From: a virus
IMG/VR virus record: IMGVR_UViG_3300027801_002586
Span: 1-64,000 of that record
DNA length: 64,000 nt
Direction: 5' to 3' (one strand)
Of the stretch, positions 56,707 through 63,990 are shown in pieces (the first letter of the stretch is position 1; every line of letters begins with the position of its first letter). The notes beneath the pieces were generated by a model that was not told the origin of the DNA, did not search any database, and was given only the letters and a program-made list of their open reading frames with translations. A program made the translations under genes and the position numbers.

Positions 56707-59337
56707 ATGTTTAATAAATATTTAAAGTCTATGGTTCTATTATTGGTACTTTCCCTTTCGTGGGCACAAGAGCCAATAATTCGAATCAAGCAAACAGGTG
56801 AATATAATTTACCAAAAACTTGGTGGAGAGACTCAGATACTTTCCAACTACAGACATATCTTGCGGATGATACAAATAATCCCGCTTTATATAACAATAA
56901 CTTTGATGCATTTAGAGATAGTGTACTGACTATGGAAGTTACACTTGATGATAATGGTGCAGATATTACTGCATTCAGATTAGATATAATCTTTGATAAT
57001 GATTTAATCGATTGGGACCACAATGATACTGAAGTAATAAAAGGTTCTCACTTATCAGCTGCAACCGAGGGAGATTCTACAGCGGGTGCGGATTACTCAT
57101 ATGAAGTAGTTCATTATTCTGATGTTGGGTATATAGATTCAATTCAAACTGCAAATAGTGAAATATCAGAAGCGAATGCACGATATGATTGGTTAAGAAT
57201 TACTATGGTATCACACAACGGAAACACTTTTAAGTTTGGTGGTGGTAATGGTGTACAGAAACAATTAATAAAATTAAATTTTAAAATAGATGATGTGGTG
57301 GATAATTTTCAACCACAATCATTTAGAATACCAACACTTTATAGTGGTGGAATGGGGTACTACACTTACGCTTCAGACGACTATCTATTAGATTACAAGG
57401 TTTACATCGATGGTAACTGGGGAACAGAAGAAACTTATGATGGTGGAGCTCGTGGAGATATTTCACTTCATCCAAAACTTTTAGATGTTGAGGGATTCTT
57501 TAGATACGCTCAACGTAATGGTACTGATGATGATAAAACTTATCCATATTGGAAAATTAAATTTGAATTGGATGCTAGTAATCCGTCAAGTTATTCCACT
57601 TGGTATAATATAGAAGGCATACCTAATGATGTAAATACTGCAGATGAGGATTTATCCGATGATGTAATTGGTGACCATACTTCTACATTTTGGTATGATG
57701 ATAAATCTACAACTGCAATGCAAACTTTACCAGGTGAGGGATTCTTAGGAATTAGTTATTATGATTCGACATATACAGATGATAGAGGATATTTTAATAT
57801 TCAATTACCACGAAACAATTATTATCGTGTTTCATTTTTCCCACCAGATGCTGAGGATAATATAGAAACTCATACTCAACTCGAACTTGATAGGTACGCA
57901 ATTACTAATCTTAATGATGCAATTGCCTCATTCAATTTTCAGTCTAATAAATTTAAATCCGTAGTGGGAGTTGATACTTTAAATTCAGTTGAATACTTTA
58001 TCGGAGATGTTGATGGAGATGATGTATTTCAATTAAATGACTCATATTTTTTATGGGCATATACATCACAGATACTTGAAAACTACACTCACTTAAATGG
58101 AAACTCTTACGAGAATTGGGGTACGATAGATACTTTAAGAGAAAATAATCAACCATTTCCTTATGTTTGGTATGAGAGTTTAGGAGCACAGAAGTATGAA
58201 TTTACAGTCTTTCCTGATGCAGATTTTGACCAAAGTGCAACATTACAATTTGGACAGATAGAAGTTATCAACCCACTTATGAATACAATTCAGACTGGAT
58301 TAGATACATTAAGTTTAAACTTAGGTGCAGGTATATCTACATATGGTAGTGATGCTAATCCAGATGTTACACTTCCTGATTGGGCATATTTCTTTACAGG
58401 AGATATTAATGCAACTGGTACTAAAGTTGATGAAACAGATGGTGATGGATACATTAATGTAAACGGAAATACATTTTATAGATGGGGCAGTGGTACTGCA
58501 CCAGGTACTTGGGCAAATAAAATTGTATCATCTACACCCGATGTGTTTTTTACAATGCCAGCAGATTCAACTGTCAGGGTTCAAAGTGGTGACCAAATAG
58601 AAGTTCCATTATATATTACACCTGAACAATTAAAAGCAATTCAAGTTGCTGGATTTGAGTTTGAAGTAGAGTTTAATACTAATCAATTAAAATTTATAGA
58701 TATGAAAACGGATGTTCTTCCAGGCCCATGGTTTACTTATGTAAACGTACATGAAGCAGATGATATTGGGTATCAGAAAGTTTCCTTTGGTGGTATGGAT
58801 TACTCACCAGGTAACGCACCTGAAACGTATTGGATAGATGAACCAATGATTGCGTTGAATATGATTTTTCAAGCAAACTTTCCAGATTCGGAATGGACTG
58901 AAGCAGATGTGCAATTCGTAGGAAAGTATTCCGCGGGAGACCCAAGTGGTAATGACTTATTAGTAGATAGACAAGATGGTAAAGTATTGGTATGGAATAA
59001 GTATTGGGCATTCGGTGGTGGTGAACCAAACGATGATGAACTAACTTATAACTATCCAAATCCATTTGATGAAACTACTAAGTTCCAGTTCTTTGTAGAT
59101 GAACTAACCGATGTAAAGATATACATATTAAATTCAATGGGACAATATGTAGGTACATTATTAGATGAATCAGTTTCACAAGGTATTCATACATTTGATT
59201 TTAATAACCAACCAAGTGTTTGGTTACCTGAAGAAAGTGTTTATCAACAACACCAATCGTTAGAACCAGGTGTTTATATATTTGTTCTTGAGACAGATAA
59301 GAGAATTAAAGCAAACAAATTCACGGTCGTGAAATAG
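56707..59337 (+). CDS. Secreted protein with cohesin-like/dockerin-like domains and T9SS type A C-terminal sorting domain
   Basis: Signal peptide ..SLSWA|QE; GDVDGDDVFQLND; NYPNPF...IYILNSMGQ.V..L...GVYIFVL....K..VVK. Confidence 0.8.
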   Translation: MFNKYLKSMVLLLVLSLSWAQEPIIRIKQTGEYNLPKTWWRDSDTFQLQTYLADDTNNPALYNNNFDAFRDSVLTMEVTLDDNGADITAFRLDIIFDNDLIDWDHNDTEVIKGSHLSAATEGDSTAGADYSYEVVHYSDVGYIDSIQTANSEISEANARYDWLRITMVSHNGNTFKFGGGNGVQKQLIKLNFKIDDVVDNFQPQSFRIPTLYSGGMGYYTYASDDYLLDYKVYIDGNWGTEETYDGGARGDISLHPKLLDVEGFFRYAQRNGTDDDKTYPYWKIKFELDASNPSSYSTWYNIEGIPNDVNTADEDLSDDVIGDHTSTFWYDDKSTTAMQTLPGEGFLGISYYDSTYTDDRGYFNIQLPRNNYYRVSFFPPDAEDNIETHTQLELDRYAITNLNDAIASFNFQSNKFKSVVGVDTLNSVEYFIGDVDGDDVFQLNDSYFLWAYTSQILENYTHLNGNSYENWGTIDTLRENNQPFPYVWYESLGAQKYEFTVFPDADFDQSATLQFGQIEVINPLMNTIQTGLDTLSLNLGAGISTYGSDANPDVTLPDWAYFFTGDINATGTKVDETDGDGYINVNGNTFYRWGSGTAPGTWANKIVSSTPDVFFTMPADSTVRVQSGDQIEVPLYITPEQLKAIQVAGFEFEVEFNTNQLKFIDMKTDVLPGPWFTYVNVHEADDIGYQKVSFGGMDYSPGNAPETYWIDEPMIALNMIFQANFPDSEWTEADVQFVGKYSAGDPSGNDLLVDRQDGKVLVWNKYWAFGGGEPNDDELTYNYPNPFDETTKFQFFVDELTDVKIYILNSMGQYVGTLLDESVSQGIHTFDFNNQPSVWLPEESVYQQHQSLEPGVYIFVLETDKRIKANKFTVVK

Positions 59338-59343
59338 GAAGAG

Positions 59344-62728: not shown

Positions 62729-63256
62729 ATGAGAATAGTAATGAAATTTCTTTTAGGGTTCATAATAATGGGAATCATAAAAGGACAGGATTTACCAACA
62801 CCTGCAATTGTGGGTGAAGATTTAGTTAGACCAACTTTGAGAATATCAGAGTTTGTAGATGTTTCTGATAGGGTGACAGTTGAAGATGAAAGAATAACAT
62901 TTGGTATTCGACAACTATTACAAGAAGCATTTTCAGATACAAGGTATATTTTAACTGATGATAATAATTCAGATTTCGTAGCATCGGTAGAAGTAGTGTA
63001 TCTTGGAAAACCAAATGAAGCATTTAGTATTGTAGGATTATTTAATCGTAGAAGTACTAAAACAGAAGTTAGGTTATTAGTTAAGTTGGAAAATTCCAAA
63101 TCAGGTATCATTAAATCATCTAAAGGTGAGGGTGAAATTGCAACAACAATTACAGCGACAGGATTACAAATCTCTGAAGATGTACCATTCAACAAAACAG
63201 AGTTGGGTGGAGCAGTAAGAAAAGCTATTGATGATGCACTCTCTACACTTGACTAA
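62729..63256 (+). CDS. Exported CsgG/LptE-like alpha/beta protein
   Basis: Signal peptide; FGIRQLLQE..., final helix LGGAVRKAI parallels 61072 protein. Confidence 0.5.
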   Translation: MRIVMKFLLGFIIMGIIKGQDLPTPAIVGEDLVRPTLRISEFVDVSDRVTVEDERITFGIRQLLQEAFSDTRYILTDDNNSDFVASVEVVYLGKPNEAFSIVGLFNRRSTKTEVRLLVKLENSKSGIIKSSKGEGEIATTITATGLQISEDVPFNKTELGGAVRKAIDDALSTLD

Positions 63257-63990
63257 TGATTAAGAAAGATGCCATTTTTGGTGTTGTACTAAACATCTTG
63301 ATAATATCTGCTGTTGTGGGTATAAGATATTATTACGCACAACAAGAAATGGATTTTTTAACCAAAGATTCAGGTAGACAAGAAGGATTAATAACTGTCA
63401 ACAAAGTTGAGATAGATACTTTAAATCAAGAGGTTGAGTATTTGAGGGTATTATCAAATGACCAACACAATGAACTTCAAAATTTACAAGTAAAATATTA
63501 CGAACAAGTAAAATGGAATACCGAGTATAATCAGAAAATTAAAAATCTGAAAGATGACCTCGATAGTCTTGGGATAGAATTGGGATTAGCATATATGAAT
63601 ACTATTCCGTTTCAATTTGAGTTTGGTTCACAAGATGCTTATATGAAAGTGTTTGGTGGAATGGGATATAAATTACAGAATAACGCAATAGTAGATTCAG
63701 AAACTAATGTTGGGTTTGATGGAAATTTAGCATTTGGTGCACCTATAATTGACCAAGTTGGGAAGTATGAATTTTTAGCATATAACGAAGATAGAGTTTG
63801 GGAATCTGATGGGAATCGAGTGGTGATGAATGGTGGTACAGCAAAAACCATTAAACTGAAACCACCAAGAAATCAGTTTAGTATAGGGCCATTTGTGGGA
63901 GTACAATATGATAAAAATACTGGATTAACTGAACCCGTAATTGGATTTGGTGTGACATATAATGCGTTGAAAATTTGGGATTGGAAATGA
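63256..63990 (+). CDS. TM-anchored coiled-coil protein with C-terminal amphipathic beta-hairpin (spanin-like?)
   Basis: N-terminal TM, coiled coil, FSIGPFVGVQY...PVIGFGVTYN. Confidence 0.5.
   Translation: MIKKDAIFGVVLNILIISAVVGIRYYYAQQEMDFLTKDSGRQEGLITVNKVEIDTLNQEVEYLRVLSNDQHNELQNLQVKYYEQVKWNTEYNQKIKNLKDDLDSLGIELGLAYMNTIPFQFEFGSQDAYMKVFGGMGYKLQNNAIVDSETNVGFDGNLAFGAPIIDQVGKYEFLAYNEDRVWESDGNRVVMNGGTAKTIKLKPPRNQFSIGPFVGVQYDKNTGLTEPVIGFGVTYNALKIWDWK

Follow-up and report, generated by a model that had tools for sequence, protein, structure and literature searches.

The stretch analyzed here (the window) comprises positions 1 to 64,000 of the virus record IMGVR_UViG_3300027801_002586 from IMG/VR, a record of 82,069 bases with a CheckV completeness of about 45% and with every gene on the plus strand. 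Towards the right end of the window, a gap of 112 nucleotides is followed by eight closely spaced open reading frames (ORFs), designated A to H and all on the plus strand, which form a cassette encoding a predicted type IX secretion system (T9SS) cargo protein, a PorV/PorQ-type protein, two proteins of predicted CsgG fold, a further predicted outer-membrane barrel and small membrane proteins. All the ORFs on which an original prediction, made from the letters of the sequence, had based an outer-membrane module between positions 56707 and 63990 are present. Proteins A, B, E, F and G are the sole clear signal-peptide proteins of the 82-kb record and are grouped in this cassette, whose features are as follows.

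56609 to 56618, plus strand: promoter-like motif ATATTTATTA, within the 112-nucleotide gap before gene A.
56707 to 59337, plus strand: gene A, exported protein of 876 amino acids with a signal peptide, a dockerin-like loop (residues 434-445), a predicted cohesin (about 613-760) and a predicted T9SS type A C-terminal domain (CTD; 783-876).
59344 to 60213, plus strand: gene B, predicted outer-membrane protein of the PorV/PorQ family (NF033709), 289 amino acids, with a signal peptide.
60293 to 60703, plus strand: gene C, 136 amino acids, with a single membrane helix (about 26-46), the C-terminal part being a coiled coil.
60719 to 61075, plus strand: gene D, variable-slot ORF of 118 amino acids, starting with a membrane helix and ending in a basic tail.
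61072 to 61713, plus strand: gene E, lipoprotein of predicted CsgG fold, 213 amino acids, with the lipobox LIGC.
61723 to 62718, plus strand: gene F, predicted outer-membrane protein ending in Phe, with a signal peptide, a small N-domain and a helix ahead of a barrel with about 12 strands.
62729 to 63256 (best start 62729), plus strand: gene G, second protein of predicted CsgG fold, with a signal peptide and without a lipobox.
63256 to 63990, plus strand: gene H, 244 amino acids, anchored in the membrane at its N-terminus and continuing with a coiled coil and a C-terminal domain rich in beta structure.
63975 to 64000 in the window, continuing to contig position 64310, plus strand: start of gene I, membrane protein of 111 amino acids.

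Protein A exceeds the cut-off (23 bits) of the T9SS type A sorting domain model TIGR04183 both as a whole (26.8 bits) and when its last 110 residues are searched alone (33.4 bits), and stays under that of Pfam PF18962 (18.2 bits, cut-off 27). Its signal peptide, MFNKYLKSMVLLLVLSLSWA/QEP, was judged from the sequence and a simple hydrophobicity scan. By these scores A qualifies as a genuine type A CTD protein, in agreement with the original prediction of a signal-peptide protein carrying a T9SS CTD. The sorting domain is found (E≤1e-3) in all 64 distinct C-termini of the gene in this position, namely that of A itself and 63 others from 77 loci having a long ORF upstream of gene E. The four phage records searched contain exactly one CTD match each, that of A being the sole one in the 82-kb record.

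The family of A (alignment A5, 24 members) is also modular, Pfam Cohesin (E≤0.01) and Por_Secre_tail being matched by 21 members each and Dockerin_1 by four (best E 0.0012). When compared with sequences in the PDB, the family profile reaches a CTD (8glj_D, 1.2e-5), several cohesins (6kg8, 1.2e-4) and, weakly, a dockerin (4uyp_B, 0.01); the A protein of the window scores 21.9 bits against Pfam Cohesin, under the cut-off of 24.1. The N-terminal domain of A was considered as a second cohesin and dropped, as it gives a weak hint at most (hhalign probability 31). Sister cassettes encode separate signal-peptide proteins with a C-type lectin (Lectin_C, 3.3e-15) or a PA14 domain (8.9e-13), whose C-terminal region aligns with the dockerin-like region of A (hhalign probability 95.9, E 2.6e-9) and not with the cohesin region used as a control (probability 0.03). 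There are 39 such lectin or PA14 proteins with a dockerin-like module, in 38 loci. The occurrence of this module in both A and the lectin/PA14 proteins, together with the split scaffold of phage immuto described below, suggests a putative cohesin-dockerin-type assembly anchored through the CTD protein. Cellulosomes offer a parallel, having cohesin-dockerin assemblies comparable to the cohesin of the A family and the dockerin-like modules of A and of the separate lectin/PA14 proteins. However, the cassette lacks attached enzymes, its anchor would be a T9SS CTD instead of S-layer homology (SLH) domains or a sortase, and its dockerin-like part is atypical and low-scoring.

Adjacent to A, gene B encodes a protein that scores 90.1 bits against the PorV/PorQ family model NF033709, a marginal value for a cut-off of 90 (six-frame domain scores, 69.9 and 24.7 bits), and remains under the cut-offs of the PorV equivalog NF033710 (48.9 bits, cut-off 250) and the PorQ equivalog NF033711 (55.2 bits, cut-off 220). 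A profile built from 22 relatives has PorV (6h3i_F, 2.9e-11) as its sole match among PDB sequences. On this profile evidence B is a divergent member of the PorV/PorQ family, orthologous to neither PorV nor PorQ; the claim that the phage possesses its own PorV is thus upheld for the family and not for the PorV equivalog. Homologues of B number 59 and are all metagenomic. One of them (P0048, 48% identical) is labelled by NCBI as belonging to a 'Pelagibacteraceae bacterium' metagenome-assembled genome (MAG), and is probably a mis-binned phage contig placed with an AT-rich genome, which calls for caution in reading hosts from bins. Neither the extra barrels of 272-290 amino acids in sister clades (hhalign probability 14, with signal peptides alone aligned) nor protein F (probability 10) could be retained as relatives of B.

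PorV shuttles cargo CTDs and holds PorU, while PorQ holds PorZ, in Porphyromonas gingivalis and Flavobacterium johnsoniae. Prediction of a complex between B and the last 110 residues of A, a check that had been proposed for the CTD-PorV pair, gave ipSAE values of 0.85, 0.85 and 0.86 and 0.00 for all three controls; 58 of 80 solved complexes attain the mark applied to this score, as do 2 of 110 mismatched pairs. At least 84% of the contacts agree between runs, and the predicted local distance difference test score (pLDDT) of the partner is at least 72. The predicted interface includes family-invariant residues on both sides, i.e. P18, N19, P20, G46, G89, Y91 and K110 of the CTD, and Y93, G94, Q96, D100, G103 and F109 of B. 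Binding of the CTD of A by B is therefore supported by prediction, short of demonstration. With the known carrier and anchor pairs of the T9SS (PorV with the CTD or PorU, PorQ with PorZ) the A-B pair shares a PorV/PorQ-family protein adjoining a CTD protein and a predicted interface between CTD and barrel. It differs from them in being viral and in the size of the barrel protein, 289 amino acids in B and 402 in the PorV chain of 6h3i. No PorU- or PorZ-like gene was seen beside the pair.

Proteins E and G show no match to Pfam CsgG (PF03783) at E≤1, and their assignment derives from relatives and models. An exhaustive phmmer search with E recovered 106 representatives; among 40 full-length relatives, PF03783 is matched by 15 (best E 1.9e-17) and LpoB by six. 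The profile of the E family has CsgG as its top PDB match (E 1.5e-4). The AlphaFold model of E (pLDDT 86) is closest in fold to CsgG (Z 13.2, root-mean-square deviation 3.0 A over 164 aligned residues), followed by XCC0632 (Z 11.2), FlgT (10.8), PelC (10.2), LptE (9.7) and TraT (7.8). Foldseek ranked PelC first with the same model, and the lead obtained from the ESM Atlas consists of CsgG clusters (0.95). The G family (alignment A7) aligns with that of E (A1) over 129 columns (hhalign probability 98.4, E 5e-15) and BLASTP relates E and G directly (1e-4); the G profile alone does not reach CsgG in the PDB. By this comparison E and G are paralogues. Among distinct proteins, 47 of 60 of the E type bear a lipobox, compared with only 4 of 56 of the G type. 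The original assignments of E as a CsgG-like lipoprotein and of G as a second CsgG-like protein are thus both borne out, the former by its lipobox and modelled fold and the latter through its relatedness to E.

E is not close to the CsgG of pelagimyophages, which the original prediction had brought up: a tblastn search of 50,697 phage records with E (E≤0.1) matched only four records, all of phage immuto. The pelagimyophages (HTVC008M group) and phage Melnitz are described as marine myophages with CsgG-family proteins lying between structural and replication modules and without curlin subunits (PMC7029224, PMC9004378), and are similar to the present phage in these respects. Curli partners (CsgA, CsgB, CsgE and CsgF) were likewise not found among the neighbours of E and G in Pfam, NCBIfam and PHROGs scans. 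However, the CsgG-CsgF pair of these phages has no detectable similarity to E, no CsgF was found in the cassette, their hosts are SAR11 and OM43 bacteria as opposed to the probable T9SS-bearing Bacteroidota hosts of the present phage, and E and G are paired here with a barrel and a T9SS cargo.

Immediately downstream of E, gene F encodes a protein whose modelled structure (pLDDT 64.6, a moderate confidence) has a barrel of about 12 strands, with an N-domain and helices in addition. The conserved mature N-terminus bears the motif Y-x-Y-x-D-P-C, and Cys28 and Cys85 of the N-domain are invariant in the family alignment (A3). The best fold matches are the beta-domains of the autotransporters EspP (Z 17.9, root-mean-square deviation 3.6 A, 233 aligned residues) and NalP (Z 16.1), with CymA (16.2), OmpG (14.9), FapF (12.6) and also PorV among the others; the ESM Atlas points to small barrels of Bacteroidota (PagL, TraO; 0.92) that have few features in common with F. 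At the sequence level F has no match in Pfam (Autotransporter included), NCBIfam or the PDB, and its family profile has no significant match in the PDB. As modelled, F is an outer-membrane barrel, and its final Phe accords with the second barrel ending in Phe that had been predicted. The modelled N-domain, linker, helix and barrel of about 12 strands recall type Va autotransporters such as EspP and NalP as well as FapF. They differ in that F has no sequence-level match to them and in that its 'passenger' would be just about 85 residues long. The linker of F is long and of low complexity in sister clades.

The distribution of the cassette was assessed in IMG/VR with a small alignment of E, which yielded 598 matched stretches, 79 of which were kept as loci. 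Relatives of E occur on at least 572 IMG/VR stretches (572 of the 598 among the matches listed). Together with two further loci (L008 and L011), the 79 make up the 81 loci used for the locus counts given here; they represent the best matches to E, some being cut by contig ends and three duplicating earlier contigs. Iterated hidden Markov models detect E/G-type genes in 80 loci, mostly as a pair, while 72 loci have F, 66 have A and 28 have B. The usual order is A, one to three small membrane proteins, E, F, none to three exported proteins and G, often followed by an exported protein of 150 amino acids. In 67 of the 72 loci with F, the gene immediately before F is E, with gaps mostly between -32 and +9 nucleotides. 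The conserved core of the cassette is A-E-F-G, and B, C and H are an addition specific to the marine clade to which the window belongs. Clades that have diverged widely keep A, E, F and G linked in one order, which speaks for a joint function of the four. Searches for PorV-family matches came out negative in two nearly complete sister records (292 kb, 99% complete, and 168 kb, 94%) as well as in the complete genome of immuto, such matches being confined to the clade of the window. In L008, a divergent locus, identity ranges from 40 to 85% for the cassette proteins, with E (85%), C (79%) and A (67%) all exceeding the tail proteins (42-51%). Searches of the 50,697 phage records with A and B (tblastn, E≤1e-3) gave no match, and no informative PHROGs match was obtained for A, B, D, E, F or G.

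The nearest cultured phage bearing the cassette, and the only one, is vB_FspM_immuto (NC_055915), which infects Flavobacterium sp. LMO8 and presents the same core in the same order in its genes gp013-gp019, whose annotation goes no further than lectin C-type, hypothetical and cohesin domain-containing proteins. Like A, gp015 combines a cohesin (Pfam 5.9e-9) with a T9SS type A CTD (TIGR04183, 44.8 bits), while gp017, gp018 and gp019 are homologues of E (30% identity, 2e-29), F and G (6e-11), respectively, and gp013 is a C-type lectin. The gp6-like baseplate protein of immuto is 40.7% identical to that encoded in the window. However, immuto has neither a PorV-family gene nor C or H, its scaffold is split between gp014 (with a dockerin-like end by eye) and gp015 (cohesin and CTD), and gp017 has a plain signal peptide in place of the lipobox. 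Also, its cassette is located among replication and nucleotide-metabolism genes and not after the tail genes.

The coiled-coil membrane proteins of the original prediction correspond to C and H, in both of which an N-terminal membrane helix precedes a coiled coil. Scans of Pfam, NCBIfam and PHROGs returned only coiled-coil noise for C and no family match for D, and H has weak matches under the cut-offs to DUF6808 (0.0025) and Rz-like LysB (0.039). The start of H overlaps the stop of G (ATGA). Gene C occurs in 24 of the 81 loci, always with B, and H in 24, only in the clade that bears B. Relatives of D are found in two loci, the slot between C and E being hypervariable and occupied in sister contigs by other membrane ORFs of 95-135 amino acids or by none.

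The gap before gene A contains ATATTTATTA, which conforms to a motif, ATATTTATWA, found 10 times in the window (3.98 expected). This motif is also present on the plus strand at 20436, 24961 and 41932, just upstream of genes starting at 20460, 25020 and 41964. Within 150 nucleotides upstream of gene A, ATATTTAT is conserved in 20 of the 23 distinct regions compared for the clade of the window and in 11 of 29 from other clades, and occurs in none of 260 control windows. ATATTTATWA is regarded from these patterns as a candidate promoter element of the phage. In contrast, the T4 late motif TATAAATA at 56597 was discarded as a promoter, being neither enriched (19 versus 17) nor conserved (0 of 24 regions of the window's clade); at 56609, where a 'late-type motif' had originally been placed, lies ATATTTATTA. 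Three studies have RNA libraries with contigs that match parts of A-H at 100% identity, gaps in this coverage carrying no information.

The presence of a T9SS CTD points to a host among the Bacteroidota, as does the infection of a Flavobacterium by immuto. In the window's A, B, F and G the residue after the signal peptide is a glutamine, as it is in 31 of 48, 18 of 21 and 24 of 54 distinct family members, cleavage being placed heuristically at the first polar residue after the hydrophobic core, a pattern that fits the Q-rule reported for Bacteroidetes (PMC5837995). The record probably derives from an uncultured marine phage with Flavobacteria as hosts.

As A carries a type A CTD and B is a PorV relative predicted to bind it, plugging into the T9SS of the host is the most economical reading for these two proteins. 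For the cassette as a whole we favor, with a probability of roughly 55%, T9SS-dependent display of a cohesin/dockerin-like scaffold together with a second outer-membrane complex composed of E, G and F, where B, in the marine clade, would supply the phage with a CTD partner of its own. The cassette would be transcribed as a block behind the conserved ATATTTAT, all its products leaving the cytoplasm. Protein A would cross the inner membrane via Sec, fold in the periplasm and pass through the T9SS translocon of the host. Binding of its CTD by B could serve as a shuttle, as for PorV, or as a lasting anchor in the outer membrane, as for PorQ-PorZ and PorV-PorU, and a B protein of its own could free the phage from the host's supply of PorV or from the sortase step. 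On the surface, the cohesin and dockerin-like modules of A would form a scaffold, which sister cassettes would load with C-type lectin or PA14 heads bearing dockerin-like tags. Proteins E and G, with their CsgG/PelC/LptE-type fold, and the autotransporter/FapF-type barrel F would constitute the second complex, either a channel or a displayed stalk, which the inner-membrane-anchored coiled-coil stalks C and H may reach. The surface of infected Bacteroidota cells would in this way be rebuilt late in infection, candidate ends being adhesion, exclusion and egress. The receptor masking, aggregation or anti-grazing originally put forward are guesses at what display might achieve, and the envelope-spanning pore put forward as an alternative would be a putative pore of E, F and G. 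We advance more tentatively, and with the odds tilted against it, the wider proposal that widespread Bacteroidota phages (at least 572 stretches) carry a self-contained display machine, made of a T9SS-exported scaffold, a PorV/PorQ-like anchor in the marine clade, swappable lectin/PA14 heads and CsgG-fold rings with a barrel, that turns the infected cell into a sticky particle capturing hosts or particles, or shields its receptors.

Several observations weigh against the display of a T9SS-exported scaffold. Protein B sits exactly at the family cut-off and far under both equivalog cut-offs and, as PorV-CTD complexes have been solved (8glj, 8gl6), the pass of the B-CTD prediction may reflect likeness alone. 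Most cassettes do without B, so that it is not essential to the core function. The dockerin-like part of A is weak in Pfam, with four of 24 family members matched, and shows one clear 12-residue loop (434-445) in place of the canonical tandem pair. Also, E itself has no Pfam CsgG match, the confidence of the F model is only moderate, and the RNA-library pieces are a hint of expression, not proof of transcription.

The association of lysis genes with the cassette also counts against display, a homologue of a glycoside hydrolase family 19 (GH19) endolysin being present in the fetched locus in 34 of 81 cases, often directly upstream of A by size and position, and a GH19 endolysin and then a holin following the cassette in L042. 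These genes speak for the main rival, a lysis or egress module in which C and H would be spanin-like inner-membrane stalks, E and G their outer-membrane partners, and F and/or a ring of E would breach the outer membrane. Both C and H have the layout of i-spanins (an N-terminal membrane helix and then a periplasmic coiled coil), the weak likeness of H is to an Rz-like LysB, E is a lipoprotein of outer-membrane type and small membrane proteins are interleaved in all clades. A role in lysis timing has been proposed for the CsgGF proteins of the OM43 phage Melnitz (PMC9004378). However, it is hard to see what a T9SS-tagged cohesin scaffold, lectin/PA14 heads and a PorV-like partner would contribute to lysis, H and C are missing from most clades, and no small ORF of the o-spanin type with a lipobox lies in or beside C or H, the only lipoprotein being the 213-residue E. 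No endolysin turned up in the 82-kb fragment (searched with PF01832, PF00959, the immuto endolysin and a GH19 query), a negative result that says little as the record is about 45% complete. On balance a lysis module is considered unlikely.

Still less probable is an outer-membrane channel for uptake or exchange, in which pores of E/G and F would raise the flux of nutrients or macromolecules and A would be an unrelated surface protein. Uptake is the simplest reading offered for pelagimyophage CsgG (PMC7029224), and it could draw on the CsgG fold of E and on the placement of F in the class of 12-14-strand channels with CymA and OmpG. Against it stands the linkage of A, E, F and G across divergent clades, and the top matches of F are helix-plugged autotransporter domains, not open porins. 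The position of the cassette directly after the tail and baseplate genes might suggest that it encodes ordinary parts of the virion, such as tail fibres or decoration proteins. Ig-like and cohesin-like folds do occur on virions. Five cleavable signal peptides, one lipobox, two outer-membrane barrels and one T9SS sorting domain, together with the location of the immuto cassette away from the tail genes, make this explanation very improbable. Finally, the bacterial appearance of the gene content (T9SS CTD, PorV, CsgG) and the Pelagibacteraceae label of one B homologue could suggest an assembly chimera with Bacteroidota host DNA, which is ruled out. GATC, whose avoidance had been pointed out originally, is absent from the cassette (21 sites expected) and from all 82,069 bases of the record (about 237 expected from base composition). 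The shared codon style claimed for the region is likewise apparent, the cassette correlating in codon use with the rest of the record (r 0.95-0.96), with a GC content of 0.334 versus 0.330. The order tail genes, cassette, replication genes recurs on eight IMG/VR contigs, answering the call for a synteny check; contigs from an independent DNA run bridge positions 56361-59018 and 58992-63283, the latter covering gene D as well, and 14 DNA runs from at least nine studies hold at least 84% of the sampled words. The absence of GATC suggests strong selection against GATC-specific restriction or methylation, or a tie to the DNA-modification genes of the record.

Phage-encoded T9SS cargo has been reported once, in the 'Cryophage' of Bellas et al. 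2020 (PMC7468147), where type A sorting-domain proteins are presumed to hijack the host system as is proposed here. However, its cargo consists of an endoglucanase, a glycoside hydrolase family 39 (GH39) protein and a PA14 protein in variable islands, and it is not known to be accompanied by genes for a PorV, a CsgG-like protein or a barrel, or to form part of a conserved cassette. No description of a phage cassette combining cargo, PorV and CsgG was found in the literature; the supplements of PMC7468147, PMC7029224 and PMC9004378 may list related genes.

If the display reading is correct, the phage would be the first virus found to extend a type IX secretion system, through a cargo of its own and, in one clade, a PorV-like partner of its own. 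In the sea, Flavobacteria rank among the chief degraders of algal matter, and adhesion and gliding of these bacteria are governed by surface proteins exported through the T9SS, on which phage adsorption probably depends as well. Sticking, aggregation, sinking or superinfection resistance of infected cells could consequently change, a question made directly testable by the cultured pair of immuto and Flavobacterium sp. LMO8. For structural studies, A and B offer a natural minimal pair of CTD and PorV type, and E/G with F a new pair of CsgG fold and barrel.

Upstream of the cassette, two genes of the tail region have family matches.

44922 to 46892, plus strand: gp6-like baseplate wedge protein (PHROGs, 1.9e-20).
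48711 to 53729, plus strand: tail/baseplate-region protein of 1672 amino acids with a Vint-type Hint domain at residues 309-418 (Pfam, 1.4e-18).

The larger of these proteins also has a weak Laminin_G_3 match. Three ORFs without any family match separate it from the cassette; the claim that the cassette directly follows tail genes is consequently sustained by the gp6-like wedge, the other tail assignments being without family support. Two of the ORFs, 54561-55574 and 55587-56594, are neighbours encoding proteins of about 336 amino acids each, with no match in Pfam or PHROGs and with C-terminal ends that look alike by eye (VGLYN-D/E-N-ELL...). By their look they are paralogues, possibly fibre or baseplate parts.

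Downstream, gene I belongs to a family of proteins of about 110 amino acids with a conserved W-F-x-x-x-x-D after the last helix, which is present in 25 of the 81 loci and may be holin-like. Its position shifts, being after H in the present record (L010:75-410) and beside gene A in L011 (6521-6832) and L035-L041. Three genes past the cassette, at contig positions 64697-65317 (L010:797-1417), lies a PAP2-superfamily phosphatase (Pfam PAP2, 1.1e-9; PhoC-like, 2.6e-8) that recurs downstream of the cassette in 13 of the 81 loci and could act on envelope lipids or undecaprenyl phosphate. Sister cassettes add a signal-peptide DNA/RNA non-specific endonuclease (Pfam, 9.8e-19) and an exported protein of 150 amino acids with an HExxH-like motif, homologues of the latter being found in 25 of the 81 loci; examples of the two are at L068:9128-9718, L075:10114-10563 and L011:6836-7420. 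In immuto, a NUC1-type nuclease is encoded just upstream of the cassette.

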